Positions 4,569-24,988 of a stretch of DNA of 42,184 bases are shown here, piece by piece. A program made the translations under genes and the position numbers. The stretch lies in the NCBI GenBank assembly GCA_050116155.1, contig JASFPE010000002.1:1-42184 (forward strand), given 5' to 3'. The notes beneath the pieces were generated by a model that was not told where the DNA came from, did not search any database, and worked only from the letters and a program-made list of their open reading frames with translations. This stretch comes from Desulfobacterales bacterium. Lineage in GTDB: Bacteria; Desulfobacterota; Desulfobacteria; Desulfobacterales; JAHEIW01. Position 1 is the first letter of the stretch. Each line of letters begins with the position of its first letter.

Positions 4569-5009
4569 TTGTACTCGGAAATTGAAAGAAAAAAAATACT
4601 TATCGTTGATGATGAATTGGATATACGGATTTTCCTGTGTAATTTGCTGGGTAACTGTGGTTACGACCCCATCGATGCCGGTGATAAAGACGAGGGGATG
4701 CAAAGGGCCGTGAAAGAGAAGCCGGACCTGATCATTCTTGATGTAACGATGCCCAGGGAAAGCGGCATTCAAATGTATCGAGAGCTCAAAGCGCATGAAG
4801 ACCTCAAGAATGTTCCGGTGATTATGGTGTCAGCCATCGACAAGAAAACCTTTTCATTTTATCAAAAATTTCAGGGCACGCCTCGGAGTAAAGGTATTCC
4901 TGATCCTGGTGCCTATTTAGAGAAACCGTTGGAGGCCGAGGAGCTCATCAAACTGGTCCGCTCATTGACCAAAACCGATGATTGCCCTTTGGCAAAGGAT
5001 GATGATTGA
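4569..5009 (+). CDS. Single-domain CheY-like response regulator (REC only)
   Basis: Motifs ILIVDDELD, LIILDVTMP, MVSA and YLEKP. The TTG start at 4569 lies 4 nt after GGAGGA (4559-4564). There is no in-frame ATG before the receiver fold. Confidence 0.85.
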   Translation: MYSEIERKKILIVDDELDIRIFLCNLLGNCGYDPIDAGDKDEGMQRAVKEKPDLIILDVTMPRESGIQMYRELKAHEDLKNVPVIMVSAIDKKTFSFYQKFQGTPRSKGIPDPGAYLEKPLEAEELIKLVRSLTKTDDCPLAKDDD

Positions 5010-5038
5010 GCACTATCGAAAGAGGGTGGTTTGGACCG

Positions 5039-7333
5039 ATGAATAACCGTTACAGTGTTGATACCCAACTGTATCGCGAGCTGGCAAAATTCGGTGCCAG
5101 GGATATGGAGATATGTATGCAATGCGGCACCTGCAGTGCATCGTGTCCTCTGTCCAGCGGAACGAATGCGTTTCCACGCAAGATATATTGCTATATTCAG
5201 CTGGGGCTGAAGGATAAATTGCTCAGATCGTCCGAGCCCTGGTTGTGTTACTACTGCGGCGACTGCAATACGGACTGTCCCCGGGGAGCTGAGCCAGCCG
5301 AGACGATGATGGCAACCCGCCGCTGGTTGACCGCTCAGTACGACTGGACTGGGCTTGCCAGACGGTTTTATCTCTCAGAGGCCTGGGAAATCGGAGCGTT
5401 GGTTGCCGTTGCCGTTGGAATCATTGCACTCTTTTGTTTTTTCCACGGGCCGGTGGTTACAGATCGTGTTTCCGTCAATTCCTTTGCACCGGTGATGTGG
5501 ATTGAAATCGGTGATTTGACCATGGCCGCCATTTTATCGACTTTCCTGCTGTCCAACGCATTTCGAATGTATCGCTTTATCATGAACGACATAAAGGTGC
5601 CGTATTGGCTCTATATTACAGAAGCCAAAGCCTTTGTCCTGAACTTCATCACCCAGAAACGCTGGCGGCAATGCGGGGAGGACCGCAGCCGCTGGCTGAA
5701 GCACTTTATCCTGGTCAGCGGTTACATGACCATGATGACGCTGGTCATTGTTTTCATCCGCTGGTTCCAGGTCGACGATAGCAGCTGGCATTTCACCAGC
5801 ATCTTCGGTTATTACGCCACCGGTGTCTTGCTCGCAATGACGGTGGAGATGTTCCGCAGCCGGCTTAAGAAAACGGAATCCATCCATCGCTTCTCAGAGT
5901 TTTCCGACTGGCTTTTTTTGATTCTGCTTTTCTTTACGACATTGACCGGTATAATGATGCATGCCTTGCGCATTGCCGGGTGGCCGATGGGAACCTATGT
6001 CATGTATGTCATCCATCTGGCAGTGGCCGTGCCGATGCTGATCATAGAGGTCCCTTTTGGGAAATGGTCCCATCTTTTCTACAGACCGCTGGCCATATTC
6101 TTAGCGAACGTCAGGCAGAAGGCATCCAAAGACTCCAAGGTCGACGTTGCGGATGTCATGACTAAGGTCGGTGAAACCTTTATGAGCTGCCTGCAATGCG
6201 GCACCTGCACGAGCGTATGCCCCTGGAATCAGATTTTTTCCTACAGCCCGCGCCGAATCCTGCGCCAGCTCGCATTGGATTCCGGCAGTGAGGAGTCTGT
6301 TGATCAGGCCGTCTGGCGTTGTGTCACCTGCAATGCGTGCGGCGTAAACTGTCCCCGCGGTATCGAAATCATCGACGTGATCAGAGCGGTGCGGGGGCTC
6401 AATGTCACTGAAGGCAGGATACCTGAGTTCCTGGCGGCAGCGCTTGATAGCCTGAAGGCCAACGGCAATCCCTGGGGGGGTGTTCGCGAGCAGCGGCTAA
6501 AATGGGCTGAAAAATTGAATCTGCGGATGTTTACATCTGAACACGAGTACTGCCTGTTCACCTGTTGCACAACCGCATATGATCCAAGTAACCGCAAAGC
6601 CGGCCGAGCGCTTCCCCAACTGATGGAATATGCAGGGGTATCTTTTGGTACCCTCGGTACCGAAGAGAATTGTTGCGGTGACCCGGCGCATCAGATAGGG
6701 GCGGGTGACATAGTTTCGGAGCTCATCCATAAAAATAGCGAGCTCTTTTTTCGAGCCGGTGTGCAGAAAATACTGACCTCGTCGCCCCATTGTCTGAATG
6801 CGTTTCGAAATAACTATGTCGATTTGAAGGGTTCTGTTACCAGTGAACATTACACGGAACTTCTCGACCGACTTGTTCGGCAGGGCCGGCTAAGTCCGGT
6901 TATAAAAGTGGCCGGCACGGTTACCTATCACGATCCCTGCTACCTGGGACGTCACAATGGCATCTACGAGGCGCCCCGCCGGATTCTGCAAAGCATTCCT
7001 GGACTGACGCTGATCGAAATGGCCAGCAATAGAGAAAGCAGCCTGTGCTGTGGGGGAGGTGGCGGCACTGCCTGGAGTGACACTCCCTGCAATCAGCGTC
7101 TGGGTGTACTGCGCATCGAAGAGGCTCTCGGCACCGGCGCCGAGGTGATTGCTACGGCCTGTCCCTATTGCATCCGCATGCTGACAGAGGCTGCAAGGGA
7201 ACTCGGTGTCGAAGATCAAATTGCCATCCAGGACGTGGCGGAATTGCTTTTGCAGTCGGTGATGATGAGGGATAAGGCCGATACGACGGAACACGTTGAT
7301 TTGGGAATTGAACGGGAGGTCTGCCATGTCTGA
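5039..7333 (+). CDS. Membrane-bound Fe-S oxidoreductase: 2x[4Fe-4S] ferredoxin + DsrM/NarI/HdrE-like membrane domain + DsrK/HdrD-like ferredoxin and CCG domains
   Basis: N-terminal CMQCGTCSASCP and CYYCGDCNTDCP. About six hydrophobic helices carry conserved His (MMHALRI, IHLAVAV, FGKWSHLFYRP). These are followed by CLQCGTCTSVCP and CVTCNACGVNCP, then CCG motifs (CCTTAYD, ENCCGDP, HDPCYLGRH, LCCGGGGG, ACPYC). ATG 5039 follows GAGGGTGG; an alternative TTG lies at 5006. Confidence 0.85.
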   Translation: MNNRYSVDTQLYRELAKFGARDMEICMQCGTCSASCPLSSGTNAFPRKIYCYIQLGLKDKLLRSSEPWLCYYCGDCNTDCPRGAEPAETMMATRRWLTAQYDWTGLARRFYLSEAWEIGALVAVAVGIIALFCFFHGPVVTDRVSVNSFAPVMWIEIGDLTMAAILSTFLLSNAFRMYRFIMNDIKVPYWLYITEAKAFVLNFITQKRWRQCGEDRSRWLKHFILVSGYMTMMTLVIVFIRWFQVDDSSWHFTSIFGYYATGVLLAMTVEMFRSRLKKTESIHRFSEFSDWLFLILLFFTTLTGIMMHALRIAGWPMGTYVMYVIHLAVAVPMLIIEVPFGKWSHLFYRPLAIFLANVRQKASKDSKVDVADVMTKVGETFMSCLQCGTCTSVCPWNQIFSYSPRRILRQLALDSGSEESVDQAVWRCVTCNACGVNCPRGIEIIDVIRAVRGLNVTEGRIPEFLAAALDSLKANGNPWGGVREQRLKWAEKLNLRMFTSEHEYCLFTCCTTAYDPSNRKAGRALPQLMEYAGVSFGTLGTEENCCGDPAHQIGAGDIVSELIHKNSELFFRAGVQKILTSSPHCLNAFRNNYVDLKGSVTSEHYTELLDRLVRQGRLSPVIKVAGTVTYHDPCYLGRHNGIYEAPRRILQSIPGLTLIEMASNRESSLCCGGGGGTAWSDTPCNQRLGVLRIEEALGTGAEVIATACPYCIRMLTEAARELGVEDQIAIQDVAELLLQSVMMRDKADTTEHVDLGIEREVCHV

Positions 7334-10300
7334 ACGAATCGGGTTTTATATCTGTCACTGCGGCATCAATATCGCTTACCGCGTCCGGGTGCAAGAAGTC
7401 GCCGAGTACGTGGCGACATTGCCGAACGTGGCCATTTCACGGGATTACCTGTTTATGTGCTCCGATCCCGGGCAAGAACTTATTGAAAATGATATTCGGG
7501 ACTACAAACTCACCCGCGTGGTGGTGGCCTCCTGTTCCCCGCGGATGCACGAAAAAACCTTTCGGGCCGCTTGCCAGCGGGCCGGTCTCAATCCATATCG
7601 AGCGTTCCATATGGTAAACGTGCGTGAGCATGTTTCGTGGGTTACTGAAAATGAAGATCTAGCTACCCACAAAGCCAAGATTCTGAGCGGTGCCGGTATT
7701 TTGCGGGTTGCCTATCAATATGATCTAACACCGGCCACGTTCCCTGTCTGCACCAACACCTTGATCGTGGGTGGAGGCATCGCCGGTATGCAGGCCGCCC
7801 TTGATATTGCCAAGGCCGGATACAGAGCGTACCTGGTAGAGAGACAGCCCACGGTTGGCGGGCACATGCTGCAGTACGACAAAACCTTTCCCACCCTGGA
7901 CTGTTCCGCCTGCATCGGCACGCCCAAGATGGTCTCCGTCGGTCAGGAAGCAAACATCGAGTTACTCTCATACAGCGAGGTGGAGGATGTCAGTGGCTTT
8001 ATCGGCAACTTCAAGATTAAAATCCGCCGCAAGTCCCGCTACGTCGAAAATAGTTGCACCGGCTGCGGCGAGTGCGAAAAGGTCTGCCCGCTTGATTTTC
8101 CTAATGAATGGGATGTTGCCACAAAAACCCGAAAAGCCATCTACCGACCCTTTCCCCAGGCCGTGCCCATCACTTATTGTATCGACAAGGACGATCGAGC
8201 GCCTTGTGTTCAGACTTGTCCGGCCGGGACCAATGTGCAGGGCTATGTAGCCCTCGTCAAATCGGGCAGGTATCGAGAAGCCGTCAATCTCATCATGGAG
8301 AAATTGCCCCTGCCGGGGACCCTTGGACGCGTCTGCCCGGCGCCATGTGAAAAAGAATGTCGCCGCGCCGAGGTGGACTCCGCCGTTGCCATCCGCGATC
8401 TGAAGCGGTTTGCGGCAGACCGCGTGGACCTTTCAGAGTTGCCTCTGCCCGAGATCGAAGACCGGCCGGAAAAGATAGCGGTTGTCGGTTCAGGCCCCGC
8501 CGGTCTTACGGTGGCCTATTACATGCGATTAAAAGGCTACCAGGTCACCATTTTCGAGGCGCTTGATCAACCGGGCGGTATGCTGCGGGTAGGGATCCCA
8601 GACTACCGTCTGCCACCTGATATACTGGACAATGAAATAAATTTTATTCTCAGACACGGAATTGAAATCAGAACCGGCGTTCGATTCGGATCGGACCTGT
8701 CCCTGGAAGGTCTGCGGCAAGACGGTTTTGCTGCCATATTTTTAGGAATCGGTGCCCATGATGCCATCCGGATGCACATTCCGGGAGAAGACCAGGTTGC
8801 AGGAGTCATCGATGCCCTTGCCTTTTTAAGAGACGTAAACCTGGGGAGAGGAGAGGTTCCCGGCAAGCAGGTCATTGTCATCGGCGGCGGAAATGTGGCC
8901 ATAGACGCCGCCCGTGTGGCAAAACGTCTGGGGGCCGAGAAGGTGACGGTGGTTTATCGCCGTTCGGAGCGGGAAATGCCGGCCTATCCTGAAGAATTAA
9001 TGGGCGCCAAGGAGGAAGGTATCGAATTTTCATATCTCACTGCTCCGGTAAGTATCCAGAGTCAGGACGGAAAGGTGACCGGCTTTGAATGCATTCGTAC
9101 CGAACTCGGCGCACCTGATGCCAGCGGGCGCAAGCGGCCGGTTCCGGTGAAGGGATCTGAATTCGTCATTGCGTGTGACGCGGTGATACCGGCCATCGGC
9201 CAAAAAGTCGATGTATCCTGGACCGCAGGAGCGACCGATCTGAAGCTGACTTCGAGAAACACCTTTACGGTGACGCCCCTCACTTTTCAAACCAGCGTAG
9301 CCGATGTATTTGCCGCCGGTGATGCCGTAACCGGACCAGCGACGGTCATCGAAGCCGTGGCGGCCGGCCACAAGGCGGTGGCGGCAATGCACCGTTTTAT
9401 CAGTGGTGAGGATCTGAATCAGTTTGCCGCAGAACTGGTTGCCGAGGAACCTCCAGGCACCGACTGGCGGGCAATTGGGAAAGAGATCCAAGATGCTCCC
9501 AGAGTGGTATCTTCCCATTTGGATCCCGCTCAACGGACTGCAAATTTTGATGAGATTGACCGGAATTTTTCCGAGGCGGCAGCCCAGAAGGAAGCTGCCC
9601 GCTGTGTGGATTGCGGTGGATGCTGCGAATGCAAGCTCTGCATGGGTGTCTGTGAAGCCAAAGCAATCAATCACGCCATGGGGGATAGGGTCGAAGAAAT
9701 CGATGTGGGTTCAATTATTGTCGCCACCGGTTTCGATCCCCTTGATCCGACGCCGATGCAGCAATACGGCTACGGAAAATACGCCAATGTCTTCACCAAT
9801 CTGGAGTTCGAGCGGCTTTCGAATGCAACCGGACCGACGGGCGGCAAGCTGCTTAAGCGGGATCCCAACGACCGCTTGAAATTCAGCGAACCACCGAAAA
9901 GCGTGGCGATCCTTCATTGCATCGGCAGCCGCGACATTAACTATCACGAGTATTGTTCGCGCACCTGCTGTATGTATGCGCTAAAGTATGCCCATCTTCT
10001 TAAGGACAAGTGTGGGCACGACACCGAAGTTTACAATTTCTACATCGACATGCGTTGCTTTGGCAAAGGCTATGAGGAGTTTTACAGGCGGGTCCAGAGC
10101 GAGGGCGTGCGCATGGTTCGCGGTAAGGCATCGCGGGTGGAAGAAGACGACGGTATCCTGACGGTCAGCGCCGAAGATACACTTTCGGACCGAATTGTGA
10201 AAGTTGCCGTTGAGATGGTGATCCTGTGCACCGCCATGGAGTCACGTGCGGATGCCAATGCTGTGTCACGTATTTTTGGGATCAGCATCGGAAGTGATGG

Positions 10301-10706
10301 TTTTTTTCAAGAGGAGCACCCTAAACTCGAGCCGGTGTCAACCCCGTCCAGCGGTGTTTTTCTGGCCGGAGCCTGCCAGGGACCCAAAGATATTCCCGAC
10401 ACAGTGGCGCAGGCCAAGGGAGCTGCGGCCGAGGCGCTGGCCCTTAGCGCCTCTGGAGAGGTCGCGGTGGACCCGATGATTTCATCCATCGACCCGGACA
10501 TATGTATCGGCTGCCAGGCATGTATCGGGCTGTGCGCCTACACGGCCATAGAGTTCAATGAGCTCAAAGGTGTTAGCGAAGTAAACGAAGCCGTGTGTAA
10601 GGGTTGCGGTAGTTGCTCCGCCCACTGTCCCAGCGGAGCTGCCAAGGTTCGGCACTTCACCGACAAGCAGGTTTTTGAGGAAATTGATGGTTTATTAGCC
10701 GGTTAG
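7326..10706 (+). CDS. hdrL: HdrL-type large HdrA-like flavoprotein (HdrA with inserted GltD/NfnB-like NAD(P)H module)
   Basis: HdrA N-domain is ICHCGINI...ASCSPRMHE, FAD site [11 protein letters not shown], then FPTLDCSAC. The central insert carries GRVCPAPCEKEC, VVGSGPAGLTVA and VIGGGNVAIDAA. The sequence then resumes HdrA (LEFERL, HCIGSRD, CSRTCCMYA) and ends with a C-terminal 2x CxxCxxCxxxCP. ATG 7326 follows GGGAGG and overlaps the upstream stop by 8 nt. Confidence 0.88.
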   Translation: MSERIGFYICHCGINIAYRVRVQEVAEYVATLPNVAISRDYLFMCSDPGQELIENDIRDYKLTRVVVASCSPRMHEKTFRAACQRAGLNPYRAFHMVNVREHVSWVTENEDLATHKAKILSGAGILRVAYQYDLTPATFPVCTNTLIVGGGIAGMQAALDIAKAGYRAYLVERQPTVGGHMLQYDKTFPTLDCSACIGTPKMVSVGQEANIELLSYSEVEDVSGFIGNFKIKIRRKSRYVENSCTGCGECEKVCPLDFPNEWDVATKTRKAIYRPFPQAVPITYCIDKDDRAPCVQTCPAGTNVQGYVALVKSGRYREAVNLIMEKLPLPGTLGRVCPAPCEKECRRAEVDSAVAIRDLKRFAADRVDLSELPLPEIEDRPEKIAVVGSGPAGLTVAYYMRLKGYQVTIFEALDQPGGMLRVGIPDYRLPPDILDNEINFILRHGIEIRTGVRFGSDLSLEGLRQDGFAAIFLGIGAHDAIRMHIPGEDQVAGVIDALAFLRDVNLGRGEVPGKQVIVIGGGNVAIDAARVAKRLGAEKVTVVYRRSEREMPAYPEELMGAKEEGIEFSYLTAPVSIQSQDGKVTGFECIRTELGAPDASGRKRPVPVKGSEFVIACDAVIPAIGQKVDVSWTAGATDLKLTSRNTFTVTPLTFQTSVADVFAAGDAVTGPATVIEAVAAGHKAVAAMHRFISGEDLNQFAAELVAEEPPGTDWRAIGKEIQDAPRVVSSHLDPAQRTANFDEIDRNFSEAAAQKEAARCVDCGGCCECKLCMGVCEAKAINHAMGDRVEEIDVGSIIVATGFDPLDPTPMQQYGYGKYANVFTNLEFERLSNATGPTGGKLLKRDPNDRLKFSEPPKSVAILHCIGSRDINYHEYCSRTCCMYALKYAHLLKDKCGHDTEVYNFYIDMRCFGKGYEEFYRRVQSEGVRMVRGKASRVEEDDGILTVSAEDTLSDRIVKVAVEMVILCTAMESRADANAVSRIFGISIGSDGFFQEEHPKLEPVSTPSSGVFLAGACQGPKDIPDTVAQAKGAAAEALALSASGEVAVDPMISSIDPDICIGCQACIGLCAYTAIEFNELKGVSEVNEAVCKGCGSCSAHCPSGAAKVRHFTDKQVFEEIDGLLAG

Positions 10707-10720
10707 AAAGGGGTTAGCAG

Positions 10721-11143
10721 ATGAGCGAGTTTGAACCGACAATTGTGGCATTTTTTTGCAACTGGTGTACGTATACGGCGGCAGATTTGGCGGGTACGTC
10801 GCGGCTGTCCTATCCTCCCAATGTAAAAAGCATTCGGGTGATGTGCACCGGGATGGTGGATCCCCAATATGTCATCAAAGCCTTTCTGGAAGGGGCTGAC
10901 GGGGTATTGATCAGCGGATGCCATCCGGGTGATTGTCATTATATCAACGGGAATTATAAGGCCCGTAGACGGATAAAGCTGCTCAAAGAGATTCTTCCGC
11001 AATTCGGTTTTGATCAACAACGGTTGCGATTAACCTGGATCGGTGCCAGCGACGGCATCCAGTTTGCCGAGGTCATGCGCGATTTGGTTGCCCAAATCAA
11101 AGCTTTGGGACCCAGCCAGGCCAGGTTGAAGATGGTGATCTAA
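10721..11143 (+). CDS. mvhD: MvhD-like (methyl-viologen-reducing hydrogenase delta subunit family) [2Fe-2S] protein
   Basis: IVAFFCNWCTYTAADLAG...IRVMCTGMVDP...GVLISGCHPGDCHY is the MvhD Cys pattern. An RBS (AAAGGGG) lies upstream. Confidence 0.9.
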   Translation: MSEFEPTIVAFFCNWCTYTAADLAGTSRLSYPPNVKSIRVMCTGMVDPQYVIKAFLEGADGVLISGCHPGDCHYINGNYKARRRIKLLKEILPQFGFDQQRLRLTWIGASDGIQFAEVMRDLVAQIKALGPSQARLKMVI

Positions 11144-12540: not shown

Positions 12541-13848
12541 ATGTCTACAGATGTCATCAAACTAGGCGGTAAAAAGAAGAGCACCTTCATGGATAAGGTT
12601 ATGGAAATTCTGCCTGAAGGAGGAAATCTGAACCTTTGTCTAACTTGCGGCGCCTGCTCTTCGGGCTGTCCGGCTACTGGATTGGAAGGAATGGATCCGC
12701 GAAAATTTTTGCGCATGGCCGCACTGGGATTAGACGATGAAATTTTGAAATCGGACTGGGCCTGGATGTGCACCATGTGCCAGCGCTGCATCTATGTGTG
12801 TCCGATGAAAATCGATATCCCCCTGTTGGTTTACCATGCGCGTGCCAGTTGGCCGCGGGATGAGCGTCCCAAGGGCATACTGGGATCCTGCGATATGGCC
12901 TTGAGAAATGATAGCTGCAGTGCCATGGGTGCTTCTCCGGAGGATTTTACCTTCGTGGTGGAAGATGTGCTGGAAGAGTACCAGGAGGCCCAGCCTGAAT
13001 TTGCGGACATGCAGGCGCCCATCGATAAACAGGGTGCTGAATTTTTTTTAAACCAGAACTCCCGGGAGCCGGTGACAGAACCCGATGAAATGGTTCCGTT
13101 GTGGAAGATTTTGCATATTGTGGGGGCGGATTGGACTTATGGCAGCAAAGGCTGGGGCGGAGAAAATTATTGTATGTTTCTGGCCGACAGTGAGGCCTGG
13201 GAACATATTGTCCGAACCACCGCAAACCAAGCCGATGATCTGGGGTGTAAGATATTTCTCAATACCGAGTGAGGGCACGTGACTTTCTCAGTCCTGGCAG
13301 GACTGAAAAGATTCAACATTGCCCACAAATTCGAGGTCAAAAACATTTATGAGTACTATGCCAAATGGATACGGGAAGGCAAATTGAAGGTCAACTCGGA
13401 CTGGAACAAAGATTTGAAGATAAAGTTTACGGTTCAGGATCCGTGTCAAATCGTGCGTAAATCCTATGGTGATCCGATCGCCGAAGATCTTCGCTATGTG
13501 GTCAAGACGGTTGTGGGAGAGGAAAACTTTATCGAAATGCACCCCAACCGGTCCAACAATTATTGCTGTGGCGGCGGCGGCGGCTTTCTACAGTCCGGGT
13601 ATAAGGAGGCCCGTCTGGAATTCGGTCGCTTGAAAGACAGTCAAATTCAAACGACCGGAGCGGACTATTGCATTGCCGGTTGCCACAACTGCCATGCCCA
13701 GATTCATGAACTCAGCGAGCACTACGGCGGTGGTTATGGGGTGGTGCACCTGTGGACCGTCATTTGCCTGGCGTTGGGTATACTGGGTGAAAACGAACGG
13801 GAATATTTAAGGGAGGATCTTAAGGAAGTGGCCGTATATGGTGCCTAA
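12541..13848 (+). CDS. DsrK/HdrD-like (GlpC-type, CCG-domain) Fe-S oxidoreductase, selenocysteine-containing (in-frame UGA at 13270-13272)
   Basis: The ORF-track entries 12541..13272 and 13279..13848 are in the same frame, separated only by TGA GGG CAC. The joined product reads ...CKIFLNTE-U-GHVTFSV.... Together they make one complete protein: 2x CxxCxxCxxxCP (CLTCGACSSGCP, CTMCQRCIYVCP) plus CCG domains (QDPCQIV, NYCCGGGGG, GCHNCH). Neither half is a complete domain set alone. Confidence 0.8.
13289..13305 (+). promoter_or_regulatory. SECIS-like hairpin downstream of UGA 13270
   Basis: CAGTCC (13289-13294) TGGCA GGACTG (13300-13305), extendable with flanking U-A pairs. The stem starts 17 nt 3' of the UGA and the apical loop contains GG. 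Confidence 0.6.
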
Positions 13849-13898: not shown

Positions 13899-16800
13899 AT
13901 GATAAGAAAAATTGGCAAAGCACTCGTCGTAGGGGCAGGTATTAGCGGTATTCGTGCGGCATTGGACTTAGCTGAATATGGTTATGGCGTCACGTTGATT
14001 GACCGGTCGCCCCATATCGGGGGCATACTCAGTCAACTCGATTATCAGTTTCCCACCGATCGTTGCGGCATGTGTAAAATGCTTCCCCTGGTCAATCGGG
14101 ATGCAGGCTCTCAATATTGCCTGCGCAAAGGTTTGTTTCACGAAAACATCGATATCCTTCTGTCCACGGACCTTGTCGCCGTTGAAGGCGAGGCCGGCCA
14201 ATTTCAGGTAACGCTCAAGCAGCATCCGAACTGGGTGGATTCGGATCGATGCACGGGATGCGGTGATTGCGTGGATGCCTGTCCGGTAGAGGTTCCGGAT
14301 GATTTTAATGCCGGTCTCAGCAAACACAAGGCCATCTATTTACCGGTTCCGCATGCCATTCCGAATCCATATGTGATTGATTTTGCGGCCTGTACCCGCT
14401 GTGGCGCTTGCGTTGAGGTCTGTCCTACCGGTGCGATTCGATTGCCTGAAGAGGAACGCAGAAAATTTCATATTCTCGTCGTCGACGACGAACTTGTCGT
14501 TCGCGATTCTCTTAAAGAATGGCTTAAAGAGGAAGGCTTTTCAATAGACATGGCCGCATCCGGCCCGGAGGCGCTGGATCAACTGACGAAACAAATGTAT
14601 CAATTGATGCTGCTGGATATTAAGATGCCCGGTATGGATGGGGTGGAGGTCCTTCAAAAAGCCAAGGAGAGTTTTCCGGATTTAAATGTGATCATGATGA
14701 CCGCTTATGCGACAGTCGAAACTGCCGTTGAAGCCATGAAGATCGGTGCTTTAGACTATCTGGTAAAGCCATTTAATCCCGAAGCTTTAGTGCCGATGGT
14801 CTTGCGAACATATCAGGATTTTACTGTGACCGAAGGACGACAGCTCGATGTTGGCGCACTGGTGCTTTGTGGCGGAACCCGCTTTTTTGACCCGACCAGC
14901 GGAAAAAACACCTTCGGCTATAAGATATATCCCAACGTTGTCACCAGCCTGGAATTTGAACGTATGTTAAGCGGTACTGGCCCCACGGCGGGACGCTTGG
15001 TGCGTCCTTTGGATGGAAAGCCGGTTCAACGAATTGCCTGGATCCAATGTGTGGGGTCTCGAGATTTACAAATGGAGGCCGACTTTTGCTCCAACATATG
15101 CTGCATGTATGCCATTAAGGAGGCGCTTGTGGCCAAAGAAAAGATTGATCCGGATCTGGAGGCCAGCATTTTTTATATGGATATGCGGACCTTCGACAAA
15201 TCATTTCAACGATATCGGGACCAAGCCGAAACGATTCATGGTATCCGCTTTGAAAGAGCGCGGGTTCACTCGGTGCTGCAAGATGCCAGCAGTGGTGATA
15301 TCATGGTCCGCAGCGTGGATATTTCAGGAAAACCCCGAGAATCGCCCTTTGACATGGTGATTCTCACCGTTGGCCAGCGGCCGGCCGAAGGCATCTCGGA
15401 GCTGGCCGAGATGTTAGGTATCGAACAAAATTCATGGGGATTCGGCCAAACCGAGGCCTTTTCCTTGACCCGCACCAATCAGAGTGGGGTTTTGTTGGGA
15501 GGTTCTTTTAGCGGCCTTAAAGACATTGGTGATTCGGTTATCCAGGCATCGGCAGCCGCCTTAAGCGCCTCGCGCGTGATCCACTCCGCCGGAGGAAGCC
15601 TGGCTTTAGAGCCATCGCCGGTCGTTCCCCCTGCCGATGTCATGCGGGAGATTCCGAAAATCCTTATCGTTGTTTGTACCTGTGGGGAGAGGCTGGCGCA
15701 GTGGGTCGATCCCCAAAAAGTCACTCGACAACTCACCAGCGATCCGGCGGTAAATCGAATAGAATTTTTAGAACAGGTCTGTACAGCCGCCGGCTGGGAG
15801 AACCTTGTGGAGCTGGTGAATACGAGTAAACCCAATCGTCTTCTGATTGGTGCCTGCCTTCCCTATGTCTATAAACGTAAACTGCGGGAGATTGGCCAAA
15901 AGGTGGGGTTGGATCCTACCCTCATGGAGGTGGTGGATCTGAATTCGGAATGGGGAATGGGGAAGGCGGAATTAAAGGATAAACACTTCATTTTTCGCAA
16001 TGTTATCTCTAAATTGGAAATGGATACGGCAAAACTGAAGAGGGTTAATCCGGAGCCTGTTCCCACAATTCCGATCATTCAAAAAGCGTTGGTTATCGGT
16101 GGCGGCATTGCCGGAATGACGGCGGCCCTGGCCATTGCCGATCATGGATTCGAGGTGGATTTAGTGGAACAGAGCGAACATCTGGGGGGAAATCTTACCT
16201 GGCTGCAACGAACCCTGGACGGGCATGACCCCAGAGCGTTGCTGGAGGAAACCAGGGCATCCGTAGAAAAGCATAACCAGATTCGTGTGCATGCACAATC
16301 CCATGTGATTCATGCTTTCGGCGAAGTCGGTAACTTTCATACGACCATTGAAGGACCCCAGAGCGCGGTGCACACACTGAATCATGGTGTCACCATTTTA
16401 GCTACCGGGGGGACAGAGGCGGATAGCGCATCCTATGGATATGGAACCAGCCCGGCCATTATCACCCAGAAAGAAATAGAACAAAAGCTATCAGATAATA
16501 CCGTAGATCCCGAGCAACTGAATTCGGTGGTCATGATTCAGTGTGTTGATTGCCGTGAGGAACCTCGCAATTATTGCAGCCGCGTTTGCTGTGCAAACGC
16601 CTTGAAACAGGCTCTTTATCTCAAGGAACACAATCCTGCAATCACGATTTATGTTCTTTACCGGGACCTGATGTCCTATGGGTTTAATGAAACCTATTAC
16701 ACTCGGGCCCGGCAAGCAAATGTGATGTTTATTCAGTATGGCATTGATGAAAAGCCCCAGGTTCAAGCCGCAGGAGAAGGATTAAAAGTGACGGTGGCCG

Positions 16801-17324
16801 AGCCGATCCTGGGGCAGCAGCTGCAAATTGAAGCTGATCTCGTGGTATTAGCCACCGGCATCGTTCCGAATCTCTCGCCAGAGTTAGTGGAAATGTTTGG
16901 TGCCGCCCTCGATCAGGACGGCTTTTTCCTGGAGGCTGAATCCAAGTGGCGTCCGGTTGACTCACTGAAAGAGGGCGTATTTGCCTGCGGCCTGGCCCTT
17001 TCCCCTCGCAACATTCCCGAATCGATTGCCACCGCTGAGGCCGCCGCGGCAAGAGCCTTGAGGATACTTTCCCGCGAACGCTTGCGGTCGGGAAAAGTAG
17101 TGGCCACGGTCCACCACAGCCTGTGCAGTCTGTGTGAAAGATGCATTGATGCGTGTCCATACGGTGCTCGCGCGCTGGATTTCGATCATGAAAAAGTACT
17201 GGTAAATCCGGTAAGGTGTCAGGGCTGCGGCTGCTGTGCGGCAGTCTGCCCCAACAGCGCATCCGTCTTGGAGGGTTTTCAGGAACAGCAAATGTTTGAG
17301 GTGATTGACGCGGCCATCGGATGA
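13899..17324 (+). CDS. Tandem HdrA-like flavoprotein with an inserted CheY-like receiver (REC) domain
   Basis: Module 1 has VVGAGISGIRAALD, FPTDRCGMC, CTGCGDCVDACP and CTRCGACVEVCP. Residues about 189-305 form a complete receiver (ILVVDDE, LMLLDIKMPGMDG, IMMTAY, YLVKPF). HdrA then resumes (LEFERM, QCVGSRD, CSNICCMYA). Module 2 has VIGGGIAGMTAA, QCVDCRE, CSRVCCANA and a C-terminal CSLCERCIDACP, CQGCGCCAAVCP. Confidence 0.9.
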   Translation: MIRKIGKALVVGAGISGIRAALDLAEYGYGVTLIDRSPHIGGILSQLDYQFPTDRCGMCKMLPLVNRDAGSQYCLRKGLFHENIDILLSTDLVAVEGEAGQFQVTLKQHPNWVDSDRCTGCGDCVDACPVEVPDDFNAGLSKHKAIYLPVPHAIPNPYVIDFAACTRCGACVEVCPTGAIRLPEEERRKFHILVVDDELVVRDSLKEWLKEEGFSIDMAASGPEALDQLTKQMYQLMLLDIKMPGMDGVEVLQKAKESFPDLNVIMMTAYATVETAVEAMKIGALDYLVKPFNPEALVPMVLRTYQDFTVTEGRQLDVGALVLCGGTRFFDPTSGKNTFGYKIYPNVVTSLEFERMLSGTGPTAGRLVRPLDGKPVQRIAWIQCVGSRDLQMEADFCSNICCMYAIKEALVAKEKIDPDLEASIFYMDMRTFDKSFQRYRDQAETIHGIRFERARVHSVLQDASSGDIMVRSVDISGKPRESPFDMVILTVGQRPAEGISELAEMLGIEQNSWGFGQTEAFSLTRTNQSGVLLGGSFSGLKDIGDSVIQASAAALSASRVIHSAGGSLALEPSPVVPPADVMREIPKILIVVCTCGERLAQWVDPQKVTRQLTSDPAVNRIEFLEQVCTAAGWENLVELVNTSKPNRLLIGACLPYVYKRKLREIGQKVGLDPTLMEVVDLNSEWGMGKAELKDKHFIFRNVISKLEMDTAKLKRVNPEPVPTIPIIQKALVIGGGIAGMTAALAIADHGFEVDLVEQSEHLGGNLTWLQRTLDGHDPRALLEETRASVEKHNQIRVHAQSHVIHAFGEVGNFHTTIEGPQSAVHTLNHGVTILATGGTEADSASYGYGTSPAIITQKEIEQKLSDNTVDPEQLNSVVMIQCVDCREEPRNYCSRVCCANALKQALYLKEHNPAITIYVLYRDLMSYGFNETYYTRARQANVMFIQYGIDEKPQVQAAGEGLKVTVAEPILGQQLQIEADLVVLATGIVPNLSPELVEMFGAALDQDGFFLEAESKWRPVDSLKEGVFACGLALSPRNIPESIATAEAAAARALRILSRERLRSGKVVATVHHSLCSLCERCIDACPYGARALDFDHEKVLVNPVRCQGCGCCAAVCPNSASVLEGFQEQQMFEVIDAAIG

Positions 17325-19630
17325 CGGTCTTTAGAATTGGAAAAATGTTCAAACTTATTAGAAATATTCGACGCAGGCTGGTTACCAAACTCATTATAAC
17401 TGTTGGCCTGACCCTGCTCATTACCATTTCAACCTGGGCCTACTTCAATATCAGTTATCAGGAAAAAAAGCTCATGGAGAATATTGTGGTGGGAACCGAT
17501 CGGTTAACCAATACCATCAAGCTCGGCGCTCATTATGCCATGATGCTGAATTCACGGGACGATATCAACCAGATCATCAATAACATCGGCAAGCAAAAAG
17601 AGATTGAAACCATCCGTATTTATAATAAAGAAGGCCAGATAAAATTTTCAAACCAACCATCAGAACTCGAAACAACCACCAATATAAAAGATGAAGCCTG
17701 CTATATCTGTCACCGGACGGACCCTCCCCAGTCTGAGCTCGGATTGACGGAACGCACACGGATATTTGCTTCGCCCCGGGGTTATCGTCTACTGGGGATC
17801 ATCAGCCCCATTTGTAACGAACCGGGTTGTTCGACAGATGCCTGTCATGTCCATCCTCAGGACAAAAAGATACTCGGCGCCCTGGATGTGGTCGTTTCTC
17901 TGGAAGATACGGATAAAGAAATCTTTATGGCTGAAAAAGGAGTCATTGGTTTAGCAGGAGGCATATTCCTGGTCACATCCGCAATTATCTTTCTTTTCCA
18001 ATTGAGGTTTGTCAATAAACCGATCCGCAAATTAATCGACGGAACTCGACGTATCGCAAAGGGCATGTATCCTAGCAGAGTAGATATTGACCAGGATGAT
18101 GAAATGGGACAGCTGGCGGCTGCTATCAACCAAATGAGTGAAAAGATTGCCGAGGACCAAGGGAAGTTGAACGAGCAAAGGGATGAGTATCAAACTCTGT
18201 TCGAACGGGTTCCCTGTCTGATTACCGTTCAGGATAGGAATTATAAGCTATTGCGTTATAATCGCGACTTCGCAAAAAGATTTGATCCTCAGCCCGGCGA
18301 ATATTGCTATGAAGCGTATAAAGGACGAGATGAGAAATGTGTAAACTGCCCGGTGGAGCGGACATTTAAAGATGGTCAAACTCATTATGGTGAAGAGACA
18401 GGCGTAAACAGAGATGGTACTCCGGTTCACTGGATTCTGCGAACATCTCCGATTAAAAATGCCAAGGGAGATATTGTGGCGGCCATAGAGATGAGCTTGG
18501 ATATAACGCATCGCAAACAGCTCGAAGATAAACTGGAAAAATCTGAAAAGAAGTACCATGAAATCTTCAACAATATTCCGAATCCGGTGTTTGTGTTAGA
18601 TAGCGACTCCCTCGAAATCATCGATTGCAATGAGAGCGTTCAAGCCGTCTATGGTTATTCCAAGGATGAGATTCTGAATAAGTCATTTATGGATTTGTTT
18701 TTGGAAGAAGAAAAAGATCAATATATTTCGAAAATTAAGTCATCCGCCATTTTGACCCGAGCTAAACATGTAAACCATGTGGGAATGCCTCTTTATGTAA
18801 ATATCAGGGTCTCGCCGGCCGAGTATCCGGGCAAAAAGGTGCTTCTGGTTACCACCAGCGATATTACCAAACGGCTTGAAGCCGAGCAGCAGCTGATCCA
18901 GGCCAGCAAAATGGCCACTTTAGGAGAGATGGCCACCGGCATTGCCCATGAACTCAACCAACCCCTTTCGGTCATTAAAACCGCAAGTAGCTTCTGTATA
19001 AAAAAATTAGATGTAAATGGTAAAATCGATAATGAACTCATGGCTACCATGATTGTTAAGGTGGACAGCAATGTGGATCGAGCTACCCGAATCATCAACC
19101 ATATGCGTGAATTTGCCCGCAAGCCCGATATTGGCCTGGGGAAGGTCCAGGTCAACGAAGTCCTGGAAAAAGCTTTTGAAATATTCAGCCAGCAGCTAAA
19201 GCTCAGGGGGATCGAAGTCGTATGGGACATTGAAAAAGAATTGCCCAAAATCAAAGCCGACCCCGGCCGATTGGAGCAGGTATTTATCAACCTTCTGTTA
19301 AATGCCAGAGATGCCATCGAAGAGCAATGGGGCCCCAGAGAAACCGCTAAGGCTGATAAACAAATTATTCTCAAAACAAGGCGCGAAGGCAAATCAATTT
19401 GGTGTGAAATCTGTGATACGGGGAAAGGTGTTCCGAAAGCAATGGCCGACAAGATCTTTGAACCTTTTTTCACCACCAAAGAAGTCGGCAAGGGAACCGG
19501 CCTGGGTCTTTCCATCAGCTATGGGATTGTGCAAGACTGTGGCGGAAGCATTCAGGTTGTCCCCCATCAACCTCACGGGGCCTGTTTTATCATAAAATTC
19601 CCCATACCGGAAAATAAAAATGGAAAATAA
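17321..19630 (+). CDS. Transmembrane sensor histidine kinase: extracytoplasmic domain with CXXCH motifs, HAMP, two PAS regions, HisKA/HATPase
   Basis: TM1 is LIITVGLTLLITISTWAYF. The sensor loop carries CYICH and CSTDACH. TM2 is GVIGLAGGIFLVTSAIIFLF and a HAMP domain follows. The PAS region carries CYEAYKGRDEKCVNCPV. H-box is IAHELNQP; HATPase boxes are LLLNARDA, DTGKGV and GTGLGLSI. The ATG overlaps the HdrA-REC stop (ATGA at 17321-17324). Confidence 0.92.
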   Translation: MTVFRIGKMFKLIRNIRRRLVTKLIITVGLTLLITISTWAYFNISYQEKKLMENIVVGTDRLTNTIKLGAHYAMMLNSRDDINQIINNIGKQKEIETIRIYNKEGQIKFSNQPSELETTTNIKDEACYICHRTDPPQSELGLTERTRIFASPRGYRLLGIISPICNEPGCSTDACHVHPQDKKILGALDVVVSLEDTDKEIFMAEKGVIGLAGGIFLVTSAIIFLFQLRFVNKPIRKLIDGTRRIAKGMYPSRVDIDQDDEMGQLAAAINQMSEKIAEDQGKLNEQRDEYQTLFERVPCLITVQDRNYKLLRYNRDFAKRFDPQPGEYCYEAYKGRDEKCVNCPVERTFKDGQTHYGEETGVNRDGTPVHWILRTSPIKNAKGDIVAAIEMSLDITHRKQLEDKLEKSEKKYHEIFNNIPNPVFVLDSDSLEIIDCNESVQAVYGYSKDEILNKSFMDLFLEEEKDQYISKIKSSAILTRAKHVNHVGMPLYVNIRVSPAEYPGKKVLLVTTSDITKRLEAEQQLIQASKMATLGEMATGIAHELNQPLSVIKTASSFCIKKLDVNGKIDNELMATMIVKVDSNVDRATRIINHMREFARKPDIGLGKVQVNEVLEKAFEIFSQQLKLRGIEVVWDIEKELPKIKADPGRLEQVFINLLLNARDAIEEQWGPRETAKADKQIILKTRREGKSIWCEICDTGKGVPKAMADKIFEPFFTTKEVGKGTGLGLSISYGIVQDCGGSIQVVPHQPHGACFIIKFPIPENKNGK

Positions 19631-20777
19631 AATACTACTTGTTGATGACGAAAAAGATGTCCGTGACGTGCTTAACCTGTCTCTTACGGATTTGGGATAT
19701 GATGTGTTTGAAGCGGAAAATGGCGATGAAGCATTGCACATTTTTAAAAAAGCCAATCCTTCCATCGTACTTACCGATATAAAAATGCCGGGCATGGATG
19801 GTATTGAACTTCTTCAGAGAGTTAAACACGAAAATCCTGACGCCGAAGTCATCATGATTACTGGGCACGGCGCGATGGACCTGGCTATCATGAGCCTTAA
19901 GTATCAAGCTGCTGATTTCATCACCAAACCGATCAATGTTGATGTGCTGGAGGTTGCTCTGAAAAAAGTGCGTGACAAGATTATAATGAAACAAAAATTA
20001 AAGGAGTATACCGAAAATCTTGAAAGACTTGTGCGAGAAAAAACAGAACTCCAAAGTCACCTGTCTTCATTAGGATTAATGATTGGTTCCATATCGCATG
20101 GAATAAAGGGTCTGTTAACCGGTTTAGATGGGGGGATGTATTTGCTGGATTCCGGTTTTGCAAAAGACAATCAGGAGCGGATCAAGGAGGGCTGGGAAGT
20201 TGTGAAATTGATGGTGGATCGTATCCGCAAAATGATCGATGATATCCTATTTTATGCCAAAGAAAGAGATTTGAAATGGGAACGGGTCAATGTTCTGAAT
20301 TTTGCCACTGGGGTGGCAACCGGCATTGAAACAAAAATGAAAGAACAAGATATTGAGTTCATAAAAGATTTCGACACAAGGGCTGCAAAATTTGAAGTTG
20401 ATGCAGGCTATGTCCATTCTGCTTTGATCAATATTCTGGAAAATGCCGTGGACGCCTGTATCAGAGACAATACAAAAAAATCTCATAAAATTGTCTTCAG
20501 CATCAGGCAGGATAAAAAAAATATAACATTTGATGTGTTTGACAACGGCATTGGTATGGACCGCGAGACTATTGACAAACTATTTACACCTTTTTTTTCT
20601 TCAAAGGGTGAAAAAGGAACCGGGTTGGGTCTCTTTATTTCCAACAAAATCATTGAGCAGCACGGCGGCAATATCAAGGTCAAATCGACTGAAGGCGAAG
20701 GAACCCTTTTCAGTATAAAAATTCCAAAAATACTGCCGAAATCCGTCAGGGTCACCAAAGATAAAGCGGCAGTTTAA
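19620..20777 (+). CDS. Hybrid protein: N-terminal receiver (REC) + histidine kinase core
   Basis: Receiver motifs ILLVDDEKD, IVLTDIKMPGMDG, MITGHG and FITKP. H-box-like SISHGIKGLLTGL. HATPase boxes ILENAVDA, DNGIGM and GTGLGLFI. It overlaps the upstream kinase gene by 11 nt. Confidence 0.9.
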   Translation: MENKILLVDDEKDVRDVLNLSLTDLGYDVFEAENGDEALHIFKKANPSIVLTDIKMPGMDGIELLQRVKHENPDAEVIMITGHGAMDLAIMSLKYQAADFITKPINVDVLEVALKKVRDKIIMKQKLKEYTENLERLVREKTELQSHLSSLGLMIGSISHGIKGLLTGLDGGMYLLDSGFAKDNQERIKEGWEVVKLMVDRIRKMIDDILFYAKERDLKWERVNVLNFATGVATGIETKMKEQDIEFIKDFDTRAAKFEVDAGYVHSALINILENAVDACIRDNTKKSHKIVFSIRQDKKNITFDVFDNGIGMDRETIDKLFTPFFSSKGEKGTGLGLFISNKIIEQHGGNIKVKSTEGEGTLFSIKIPKILPKSVRVTKDKAAV

Positions 20778-21934: not shown

Positions 21935-24900
21935 TTAACTGAAAGTGATCTCAAACGGCGCCTCATCGAACAAACACGATTGTAGCTGGGCCATAATCTG
22001 GCCGGTATCAAATCCTTTCAAATGAATGGCCCCGGAACGGCATGATGCCACGCATAAACCGCAGCCTTTGCACAACGCTGGTTGAATTTCCGCTTTTCCG
22101 GTTTTTTCATTGAATTTCGGTGCCGAATAGGGACAGATCTCCGTGCATACACCACAATTGCTGCAGAAATTCTGATCGACCAGCGCTACCATCCCGCTCA
22201 CCGAAATTTCAAGGGCAGACAACACTGTTATCGCTCTGGAAGCAGCTGCTTGCGCCTGGGCAATGGATTCTTCAAGGGGTTTGGGAGCATGCGCTATTCC
22301 GCATATGAACACCCCGTCAGTGGCAAAATCATTGGGTCGCAGTTTGACATGAGCTTCGGCAAAAAACCCGTCATCGTTTTGAGGTACTTTGTACAGTTGC
22401 GCCAGGCGATTATTTTTTTGCGGGATCATGGCACTTGCCAGGATCAGAAGATCACTGTGGATGACCATCTGTCTTTGGAGCACACGATCAGAAAATTGGA
22501 TTTCCAGAGCCTCTTTGCCGGTAAGGACGGAGATCCCTTTATCGTTTTGATATCTGATAAATTTGATTCCCTGGGTGCGCGCTTCTCGATAAAGATCCTC
22601 GCGCAGGCCGTATGATCTCATGTCCCGGTACAAAACAAAAATATTCATAGCGGGATTTTGCGATTTGAGGCTCAAAGCACTTTTGATGGATTGGGTACAG
22701 CAAACTTTCGAACAATACGGGCGCTGCGGTATGCGTGAGCCCACACATTGGACAAATACCGCCGTACGACAGGAATCAAAGGGATCTTTGTTCTTTAATT
22801 TTTTTTGGAGTTCCAGGCCGGTGAGCACACGCTGATCCTGAGCGTACAAAAAATCTTGCGGCTTGAATTCATCTGCGCCGGAGGCAATCAACGTGACACC
22901 ATGTTCCAGGACTTTGGGCTTGCCGTTGTTTTGGATGGTTGTTTTAAAATTACCGACAAATCCCTCGACGTTGTCCGCGTGAGCATTAAAGAAAATTTCG
23001 ATGTTTTGATCAGATTGGACGTCATCGATTAATTTTTGCAGAAATGGACCGATGGGCTCTGCCTGCCAGGTGTCATTGAGATACCGTGCCTGGCCCCCGA
23101 GCTCACCGTTTTTTTCGACCAGGTGGGTTTTGTATCCCTGGGCGGCTAGCGTCTTGGCTGCAATCATTCCCGCCACGCCGCCGCCGATGACCAAGGCAGC
23201 CTGGTTGATTTTCATCACCGGCTCCGTCAGGGGTTCATGCAGCGCGACTTTTGCGACCGCCATTCGAACGAGGTCCTTGGCTTTTTCCGTCGCTTTTTCC
23301 ATATCGTCTTTGTGAACCCATGAACACTGGTTGCGGATATTGGCCATTTCGAAGAGATATTTATTCAGACCTCCGTTGATCAGTGTTTCCTGGAAAAGCG
23401 GTTCGTGAGTTTTCGGTGTGCAGGCCGATACGACCACCCGGTTGAGCCGGTGCTCTTTTATGATGTCTGAAATTTGACCCTGGGTGTCTTGAGAGCAACT
23501 GAACAGATTTTGCGCCGCGTATGCCACATTCGGCAGGGTTTTGGCAAATTCAACGACTGCCGGCACATCGACAAATCCGGCTATATTGGTTCCGCAGCAG
23601 CATATAAAAACGCCGATTCTCGGGGGTTCTCCTTTGATATCGATTTCCGGGGGCAGCTCTTTGGTTTGGGTAAGGGTCCATCTGGCATTATATAGCGTGC
23701 TTCCAACCTTGCCGGCTGCCGCACTTGCATCGATCACCGAGGTCGGAATATCTTTGGGCTCCTGAAAGGCGCCACACACGTAGATACCGGATCGCGAGCT
23801 CTGGACCGGGTCAAAGCTGCCGGTCTTTGCGAAATGATATGGAGTCAATTCGATATTCAGTTTTTTTGCCAGATCTATGGCCTGATCCCCAACGCCTAAA
23901 CCCACGGACAACACCACCATATCAAATGCTTCGCCAACGCTCCTGCCATTTTCGTCGACATAGCGGATAAGGTGCTTTCCGTCTTCATCCATGGGCTCCA
24001 CATGGGTGATGCGCGATTTGATGAAGCGAACCCCCAGATCCTGTTGGGCTTTGTTATAATAGCGTTCAAAGTCCTTTCCAAAGGTTCGAATATCGATATA
24101 AAAAATGGCCGCATCCAAACCGTTTTTGCTATGCTCTTTGGCCAAAATGGCTTCCTTGACCGCATAGGTGCAACAAACCCCGGAACAGTATCCTCTGGCT
24201 CCGATATGATTGTCTCTGGAGCCGACACATTGCAGCCAGGCAATCTTTTCAGGTTCGGATTTATCCGACGGTCTGAGCAGATGCCCGCCATACGGTCCGG
24301 AGGCGGAGAGGATTCTTTCAAATTCCAGGCTGGTGACAATATCGGCCGAATTTGAATACCCGAAAGTATCGTACGTGTATGGGTTATATGCTCCGCTGCC
24401 ACACGATAATATAATGGCGCCCACATTTATTGATATTTCTTTTTTTTGGTCCTCAAAGTTGATGGCTTTGGTTGGACAAAATTTTTCACAGCCTCTGCAT
24501 TTACCTCGGATGAGATAAATGCATTGCGCTGGATCGATGCAATACTTCAGCGGAACGGCCTGGGCATACTGCACGTAAACCGCCTTGCGTTTGGCCAGTC
24601 CCGCGTCATATGCATTGGAAACTTTTTTGGGGCATTTCTCTGCACAGGCACCGCAGGCGATGCATTTTTCCACGTCCACGTAGCGCGGGTGCTGGGTCAG
24701 GTTGACCTCGAAATTACCGGCTTCGCCGGAAATGTTTTCGATTTCGGAAAGGGTCAGGAGTTCGATATTGATGTGCCGGCCGACCTCGACCAGTTTGGGT
24801 GAGATAATTCACATGGCACAGTCGTTGGTGGGGAATGTTTTATCAAGCTGCGACATCATTCCCCCGATGGAACTCGAACTTTCAACCAGGTAGACATAGT

Positions 24901-24988
24901 AACCGGAATCAGCAAGATCCAGGGATGCCTGCATCCCGGCGATACCGCCCCCCACCACCATTACCGCACCGACTTCTTTTGTTGACAT
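21935..24988 (-). CDS. hdrA: Tandem HdrA flavoprotein, selenocysteine-containing (in-frame UGA at 24809-24811)
   Basis: ORF-track entries 24809..24994 and 21935..24679 are in one frame. My translation across the gap gives ...[73 protein letters not shown]. This is continuous HdrA sequence with U at the position where the two other HdrA-type paralogs in this window have Cys (DCSAC, RCGMC). ATG 24988 follows GGAG. A second HdrA module is present ([33 protein letters not shown]). Confidence 0.88.
24776..24793 (-). promoter_or_regulatory. SECIS-like hairpin downstream of UGA 24811-24809
   Basis: The minus-strand RNA reads UGA-N15-CUGGUCG AGGU CGGCCGG. This is a 7-bp stem (two G-U pairs) with an AGGU apical loop. 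Confidence 0.6.

Follow-up and report, generated by a model that had tools for sequence, protein, structure and literature searches.

An in-frame UGA in an HdrD/GlpC-like iron-sulfur oxidoreductase gene of a Desulfobacterales bacterium is almost certainly a selenocysteine codon

The reading frame around the UGA at 13270..13272

Does the TGA that closes the open reading frame (ORF) 12541..13272 end a protein, or is it decoded as selenocysteine (Sec) within a longer one? The question arises in a 42,184-nucleotide stretch of DNA from a Desulfobacterales bacterium of the sulfate-reducer type, the whole of which was analysed and which we call the window, where the ORFs 12541..13272 and 13279..13848 lie in a common frame and are separated by TGA-GGG-CAC alone. 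The first ORF encodes 243 aa and is closed by the TGA at 13270-13272, and from GGG CAC GTG onward the frame is open to the TAA at 13846-13848. Public gene calls (JGI, ENA and Logan) cut the gene at this point and annotate its halves separately, as 'ferredoxin' (243 aa) and 'Fe-S oxidoreductase' (189 aa).

An initial annotation of the window had taken the two ORFs to be joined by an in-frame UGA, and both its coordinates and the shared frame were confirmed. Judged from the comparisons of related genes described below, the apparent stop is almost certainly a selenocysteine codon within one HdrD/GlpC-like Fe-S oxidoreductase gene of 435 codons on the forward strand (12541..13848, with the ATG at 12541), whose UGA (13270..13272) would encode residue 244 in the motif NTE-U-GH. 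The peptide around the UGA reads DDLGCKIFLNTE-U-GHVTFSVLAGLKRF, with KIFLNTE directly preceding the U. In a six-frame scan of the whole window, 17 single-TGA junctions were flanked by open stretches of at least 60 codons, and two-sided homology was found at 2 of these 17, namely the HdrD-like gene and an HdrA gene discussed below, the other 15 not having each been checked.

To place residue 244 within its family, we searched a protein collection with the fused translation, which returned 2589 matches, and aligned the best 120 of these 2589 by MAFFT. These best 120 homologs are 412-532 residues long with 57-79% identity, and they cover 94-100% of the fusion. In the alignment, which the initial annotation had suggested as a check, the U column holds Cys in 120/120 of these best homologs, inside an invariant NTE-C-GH segment in which E243, C244, G245 and H246 do not vary. 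The NCBIfam models for HmcF, TmcB and DsrK each give one unbroken match, from ~61-77 to ~398-404, that crosses codon 244. The earlier view that the fusion alone is a complete family member is borne out by these data, with a HmcF/TmcB/DsrK profile stretch (71-398) that spans the UGA, and with more than 100 homologs of ~435 aa that align over 95-100% of the fusion. Identity to the fusion is 65-79% for the full-length Cys homologs.

We additionally searched a collection of species-representative genomes for genes that carry TGA at this codon, using the pattern AAY ACN GAR TGA GGN CAY NNN ACN TWY, for which ~10 matches would be expected by chance according to our own estimate from the information content of the pattern. 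At least 120 loci were found, such that species-representative genomes of the Desulfobacterales and Desulfobulbales with TGA at the identical codon number at least 120. Among the matches listed, 120/120 are orthologs, homologous both before and after the TGA, and 94 are full-length Sec orthologs with 65-92% identity to the window protein. Cultured carriers of the TGA are Desulfoluna limicola, D. spongiiphila (two copies), Desulfocicer vacuolatum, Desulfoprunum benzoelyticum and Desulfopila sp.

These data bear on the reading in which the UGA is a true stop, such that a ferredoxin of 243 aa and a CCG protein of 189 aa are made separately and assemble as subunits in the manner of HdrC plus HdrB, and translation restarts at GTG 13279. 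This reading would agree with the split annotated by the JGI, ENA and Logan gene callers, whose halves fall into database clusters of 527 and 1721 members, with the presence in the window of a GTG two codons past the stop and a GAGG-like stretch upstream of it, and with the situation in methanogens, where HdrC and HdrB occur as individual subunits. However, the codon matching GTG 13279 is ATG, GTG or TTG in only 15% of the 120 orthologs listed, and in those without a start there the next start-capable codon typically lies 40-90 codons downstream; thus there is no conserved restart for a separate C-terminal polypeptide. The break also does not coincide with a domain boundary, which the initial annotation had regarded as evidence that would speak against a recoded codon: the HdrC/HdrB boundary lies near residue 105, while the UGA falls inside the HdrB-like domain at the invariant Cys. 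In addition, a Cys ortholog with 79% identity (P0001), modelled with AF2 (pLDDT 83.6, pTM 0.86), forms one compact fold in which Cys244 sits between a strand (238-241) and the helix (245-257) that it N-caps, and the hairpin downstream of the UGA, described next, covaries and is linked to the TGA. Two separate polypeptides are for these reasons very improbable.

A SECIS-like hairpin downstream of the UGA

If the UGA is decoded as Sec, an RNA signal would be expected close behind it. The initial annotation had pointed to the inverted repeat CAGTCC-TGGCA-GGACTG at 13289..13305, and RNA folding extends the core of this repeat to 8 bp. The resulting SECIS-like hairpin (13284..13309, forward strand) has a core helix at 13288-13295/13299-13306, a GGC loop at 13296-13298, and a lower stem at 13284-13286/13307-13309 that is set off by a bulged C13287. 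The core helix begins 16 nt 3′ of the UGA and the GGC loop lies at 24-26 nt. In the bSECISearch model, the loop of a bacterial SECIS element lies ~16-37 nt after the UGA and has a G in its apical portion, and both the position and the apical G of this hairpin fit that usual description. The region 13270-13330 folds with an MFE of -22.7 kcal/mol, compared to -11.8 ± 2.5 for dinucleotide shuffles (z = -4.3), and 1 of 200 such shuffles folds as stably.

The hairpin was then followed across species in an alignment of the 54 nt from the TGA, in register, comprising the window and the 120 loci (121 sequences). When helix columns 15-26 are paired with columns 30-40, 89% of cells are paired, with a covariation score reached by 0 of 500 shuffles, while sliding the partners by 1-3 columns as a control drops pairing to 32-51%. 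Several pairs exchange between alternative complementary states: pair 26-30 is GC58/UA49/GU7, pair 19-37 is UA92/GC13, and pair 21-35 is AU92/GU16/UA5/GC3. The helix overlaps coding sequence, and compensation is partly achieved through synonymous Ala codons: at pair 26-30 the codons are either Leu(CUG)/Ala(GCA) or Arg(CGG)/Ala(GCC), so that the partner base is adjusted by exchanging GCA for GCC. Third-codon positions within the helix are nearly frozen, with C in column 24 in 120/121 sequences and G in columns 27 and 36 in 121/121, while the non-helix columns 6, 12 and 15 vary freely. Of the two Gs in the apical loop, G27 never varies among the 121 aligned sequences and G28 occurs in 95% of them.

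Cys-codon orthologs provide a control for whether the helix belongs to the family or to the TGA. Of the 8 core pairs, an average of 7.8 can form in the TGA orthologs (MFE -11.4 ± 1.4), compared to 3.5 (MFE -6.1 ± 2.6) in 120 control orthologs with TGY (Cys) at the codon. Among Cys orthologs, one from a Desulfomicrobium MAG (L174) keeps the hairpin, and this locus looks like a recent Sec-to-Cys conversion. The hairpin noted in the initial annotation is thus SECIS-like, conserved and covarying, and is as a rule absent from Cys-codon orthologs; on the strength of these sequence comparisons, we take it to be an RNA element that is functional and goes together with the TGA. Rfam, searched permissively over 13200-13400 and at gathering threshold over the whole window, returned no SECIS or credible RNA family, only chance matches to miRNA, snoRNA and CRISPR-repeat models. 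Since Rfam has poor coverage of bacterial SECIS elements, this result was not weighed against a SECIS assignment.

A second recoded gene and the decoding of UGA

The second junction with two-sided homology lies in an HdrA gene on the reverse strand (21935..24988), which we read as a second selenoprotein gene with its TGA at 24811..24809 and a hairpin at 24793..24776. The annotated HdrA ORF (21935..24679) lacks its N-terminus, and reading upstream crosses the TGA, with the FAD Rossmann motif found within the 59 aa that precede it. Both other HdrA paralogs of the window have Cys at the position of the TGA. The pattern TNDCxM-TGA-I occurs in at least 117 other genomes with enough flank (119 stretches listed), in an FPT context in 110 of 117, and these at least 117 genomes share the hairpin CUGGUCG-AGGU-CGGCCGG almost nucleotide for nucleotide. 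In the window alone the stability of this hairpin is not above that of shuffles (z = 0.37), so its support comes from near-invariance across genomes and not from fold stability. HdrA is a classic selenoprotein family (PMC1794560).

The selA, selB, selC and selD genes are absent within the 42-kb window, and a tRNA scan of it found no tRNA and thus no tRNA-Sec. Nevertheless, the window has two genes with a Sec-type TGA, one of which falls at HdrA's classic Sec position, and together they suggest that the organism very probably decodes Sec.

Whether the residue inserted is always Sec is a finer question. The UGA could be read through with Cys or Trp by near-cognate decoding, or with Cys carried on tRNA(Sec) when selenium is scarce; sequence by itself cannot separate Sec from SelB-dependent insertion of Cys, and Cys is functional at residue 244 in most homologs. 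Against this, the hairpin, its apical GG and its spacing, features generally known from bacterial SECIS elements, suit SelB-dependent recoding. The same lineage also maintains many selenoproteins (PMC2702500), and the HdrA gene places a second Sec-type site in the window, making readthrough to another residue about as improbable as two separate polypeptides. The remaining proposal, in which the gene is a pseudogene whose TGA arose by nonsense mutation or through faulty sequencing or assembly, needs just one TGC/TGT to TGA change and would agree with Cys in all of the closest full-length database proteins (best 120 of 2589), but it is effectively refuted by the comparative data, in which the identical split gene occurs on contigs from several independent samples, at least 120 genomes share the TGA at this position, all family-invariant residues are kept in both halves and the RNA hairpin is conserved. 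With these alternatives weighed, it is highly probable that a single gene spans 12541..13848, that its UGA is recoded as Sec, and that its product is a soluble HdrD/GlpC-like iron-sulfur oxidoreductase of the cytoplasm.

Domain architecture, relatives and a possible role of Sec244

The predicted 435-residue protein combines two Fe-S modules, both recognised by Pfam when Cys is put in place of the stop. Its N-terminal part contains an HdrC-like ferredoxin domain (residues ~30-92; 12628..12816, forward strand) with two CxxCxxCxxxCP motifs, which matches Pfam Fer4_8/Fer4_17 and PDB HdrC chains at E = 1e-12 to 4e-16. The HdrB-like part contains a single complete CCG motif, C302...C342-C343-G...C381-H-N-C384 (13429..13704, forward strand; PF02754 at residues 297-388), which is a predicted noncubane [4Fe-4S] site; its Cys residues are invariant in the homolog alignment, and the aligned counterpart of this region in HdrB is the C-terminal CCG domain. 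A profile of the HdrB-like part places 'ntecgh' on the 'TECNGC' of HdrB, which is the CxxC end of the first CCG motif, albeit with low posterior probability. The best PDB folds for the P0001 model are mycobacterial EtfD (TM 0.66, query-normalised) and HdrB (TM ~0.6). A sequence search of the PDB returned HdrB/HdrC and distant Fe-S proteins only, with no structure of DsrK, HmcF or TmcB.

The gene lies within a cluster in the order HdrF-like 775-aa fusion, HdrL-like HdrA/GltD, MvhD, FrhB/FdhB-like, HdrD-like Sec gene and receiver-domain HdrA. Of these, the HdrA/GltD fusion flavoprotein (7296..10706; Pfam, NCBIfam) is of the 'HdrL' type, a name taken from PMC2702500, the MvhD/FlpD-type subunit lies at 10721..11143 (Pfam FlpD, 2e-54), and directly downstream of the Sec gene is an HdrA-like flavoprotein (13899..17324; HdrA profiles) with an inserted response-regulator receiver domain (Pfam Response_reg, residues 192-300), all on the forward strand. 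The sole membrane domain nearby belongs to a separate protein, the 775-aa QmoC/HdrD fusion three genes upstream. Across species, HdrA and MvhD neighbours are found at about a third to half of both Sec and Cys ortholog loci. The initial annotation had also equated the U column with the Cys of the SSPH-C-LNAF segment in the 775-aa paralog; this was not reproduced, as pairwise BLASTP does not align the two proteins there and the equivalence is positional only.

A further comparison is with enzymes that likewise have one CCG motif. Barbosa et al. (2024) described DsrK as having only one CCG motif, with one Cys of the missing noncubane cluster strictly conserved in GECGH, and proposed that this T/GECGH Cys, common to HmcF, TmcB and DsrK, is catalytic (PMC10861901). 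The E-C-G-H segment of DsrK-type proteins named in the initial annotation is therefore real. The window protein resembles DsrK, HmcF and TmcB in having two ferredoxin clusters, one CCG motif and this motif, with Sec replacing Cys, and the putative Sec244 is accordingly assigned, by alignment, to the position of the T/GECGH cysteine proposed to be catalytic in these single-CCG enzymes. Selenocysteine does not come up in the DsrMKJOP paper (PMC10861901), and our literature search found no publication that pairs selenocysteine with DsrK or HmcF.

This likeness does not extend to orthology. The equivalog scores of the window protein are far below the cut-offs for HmcF (172.5 versus 750 bits), TmcB (169.9 versus 735) and DsrK (119.9 versus 400), indicating a relative and not an ortholog, so function cannot be transferred from those enzymes. 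Furthermore, DsrK, HmcF and TmcB are encoded beside a membrane cytochrome b partner (DsrM, HmcE and TmcC, respectively), whereas none is adjacent in the window, where the partners are soluble HdrA-type flavoproteins. Assignment as a DsrK, HmcF or TmcB ortholog was rejected on both grounds, and the DsrC trisulfide is not known to be a substrate of the window protein. HdrB/HdrC of the methanogen HdrABC complex (5ODC, 8RVV) and EtfD (9OJN) share the fold, with homology in the second CCG motif and with 'TEC' matched to the 'TECNGC' of HdrB; HdrB, however, contains both CCG motifs in complete form, carries two noncubane clusters and lacks Sec at the site, while the first motif of the window protein is reduced to about residue 244 alone.

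The closest published counterparts are selenoproteins. A deltaproteobacterial selenoprotein family named Fe-S oxidoreductase (GlpC), whose genes cluster with hdrA and frhD, has been described (PMC1794560), a GlpC-like family is tabulated in a 2026 review with the Sec motif 'UGH' and PTHR43551 (PMC13188914), and the genome paper of Desulfobacterium autotrophicum lists Sec-containing HdrD4 and HdrF2 (PMC2702500); the initial annotation's statement that GlpC/HdrD-type selenoproteins had already appeared in surveys thus agrees with the literature. Published GlpC-like members include WP_174406253.1 and the GlpC proteins of Desulfotalea psychrophila and Syntrophobacter fumaroxidans. As in the GlpC family (PMC1794560, PMC1976440, PMC13188914), the window gene has a single Sec in U-G-H, Fer4_8 ferredoxin and CCG domains, and a host within the Desulfobacterota, and its hdrA and mvhD/frhD context is also that of GlpC-family loci, with the addition that one such partner is itself a selenoprotein here. 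The published five-gene GlpC operon includes the hydrogenase genes frhG and frhA, whereas the window cluster has neither and instead encodes the HdrL-type and receiver-domain HdrA fusions and the FrhB/FdhB-like protein. Profile matches of the window protein to GlpC, TfrB and HdrB/C are weak. In motif, architecture and context the gene nonetheless matches the family as published, and we find no difference in kind. HdrD4 of D. autotrophicum HRM2 is likewise a soluble, Sec-containing fusion of HdrC-like and HdrB-like parts without a membrane part (PMC2702500), and its loci, with hdrA/hdrL, mvhD and fdhB-like genes, resemble the window context when compared by description.

The selenoprotein family, known since 2004-2006, its UGH motif and its hdrA/mvhD context were therefore already published, and the window gene adds one instance to them. 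What is modestly new is the number of species with the same recoded site (at least 120, versus 5 proteins in 2006), the clarity with which covariation supports the SECIS element, and the explicit equation of Sec with the T/GECGH cysteine that has been proposed as catalytic in DsrK-type enzymes.

These observations could be combined into a mechanism as follows. During translation, the hairpin would bind SelB carrying Sec-tRNA(Sec), leading the UGA to be recoded as selenocysteine. In the folded protein, the HdrC-like domain would hold two cubane [4Fe-4S] sites and the HdrB-like domain, in which the C-terminal CCG motif alone is intact, one noncubane [4Fe-4S] cluster, leaving residue 244 as the presumed lone survivor of the lost first CCG motif. 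Electrons may enter through the neighbouring HdrA-type flavoproteins and MvhD and cross the two ferredoxin clusters to the noncubane cluster. There, Sec244 could attack a disulfide or polysulfide substrate, as a nucleophile or redox-active partner, and give a selenenyl-sulfide, which the noncubane cluster would reduce in one-electron steps, in a cluster chemistry that would resemble that of ferredoxin:thioredoxin reductase. Sec would be expected to outdo Cys in reactivity at this position.

The pattern of exchange between species speaks to the role of the residue itself. Natural exchange of Cys and Sec recurs exactly at T/GECGH and nowhere else among the sites seen, across well over 100 Desulfobacterota species, which would count as independent evolutionary evidence for a catalytic function. 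We put the chances at about even that the lone T/GECGH Cys of single-CCG HdrD/DsrK-type enzymes is a redox-active catalytic nucleophile, and not a structural residue or a simple cluster ligand.

For annotation, the locus suggests that selenoproteins of the GlpC/HdrD-like family are systematically mis-annotated in metagenomes and that selenoproteome sizes are undercounted, since public calls split the gene and the halves already cluster as 527 and 1721 sequences. For enzymology, Sec would mark the most reactive residue of single-CCG HdrD/DsrK-like reductases. If the catalytic reading is true, the Sec forms, which exist in cultured Desulfoluna and Desulfocicer, would offer a handle with which to trap the selenenyl-sulfide intermediate and identify the substrate.

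A second candidate selenoprotein gene

In addition to the HdrD/GlpC-like Fe-S oxidoreductase gene with its in-frame Sec-UGA, the window holds a predicted second selenoprotein gene, which encodes an HdrA protein (21935..24988, minus strand) and combines an in-frame TGA (24811..24809), homology upstream of that codon and a conserved hairpin (24793..24776). The ORF finder returned only the part that follows the TGA (914 aa), and the 59 residues preceding the TGA contain an FAD-binding Rossmann motif. The TGA and the hairpin, CUGGUCG-AGGU-CGGCCGG, are shared by at least 117 other genomes, and the hairpin is nearly invariant at the nucleotide level.

Cysteine forms of selenoproteins

Among the orthologs of the oxidoreductase gene that carry a Cys codon at the Sec position, the locus L174 (Desulfomicrobium sp. 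MAG, contig CAXNFJ010000128.1) reads TGC at NTECGH, and near these codons a hairpin (GCGGUCCG-AGC-CGGACUG) keeps seven of the eight base pairs of the core SECIS helix. This helix is probably a fossil SECIS left by a recent Sec-to-Cys conversion. Elsewhere in the window, a type III sulfide:quinone reductase (31428..32681, minus strand), followed by a DUF1641 protein (30739..31428), matches the NCBIfam 'selenoprotein subtype' at 654 bits against a cut-off of 525. Since its ORF is uninterrupted and has Cys (GHAT-C-F) at the HxxU position of the subtype, we assign it as a Cys form of this recently described selenoprotein family.

Architecture of the hdr neighbourhood

Upstream of the oxidoreductase gene lie a 775-aa 'HdrF'-type fusion (5006..7333, plus strand), in which an HdrC-like domain and a pair of CCG domains are joined to a QmoC/HdrE-like membrane domain, and a 1136-aa 'HdrL'-type HdrA/GltD fusion (7296..10706, plus strand), both architectures having been named in Desulfobacterium autotrophicum (PMC2702500). 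Because the two ORFs as listed overlap by 38 nt, the TTG start of the latter was probably placed too far upstream; the JGI call gives it 1126 aa rather than 1136. In the 1141-aa HdrA-like flavoprotein (13899..17324, plus strand), residues 192-300 form an inserted response-regulator receiver domain, and histidine-kinase and receiver genes flank the hdr cluster (4569..5009, 17321..19630 and 19620..20777), which together suggest that electron transfer may be controlled by phosphorylation.

Public annotation of the oxidoreductase gene

JGI, ENA and Logan gene calls (loci L121-L124) cut the oxidoreductase gene into a 243-aa 'ferredoxin' (12541..13272) and a 189-aa 'Fe-S oxidoreductase' (13279..13848), whose clusters at 90% identity hold 527 and 1721 sequences, respectively. 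This selenoprotein is systematically mis-annotated in metagenomes.
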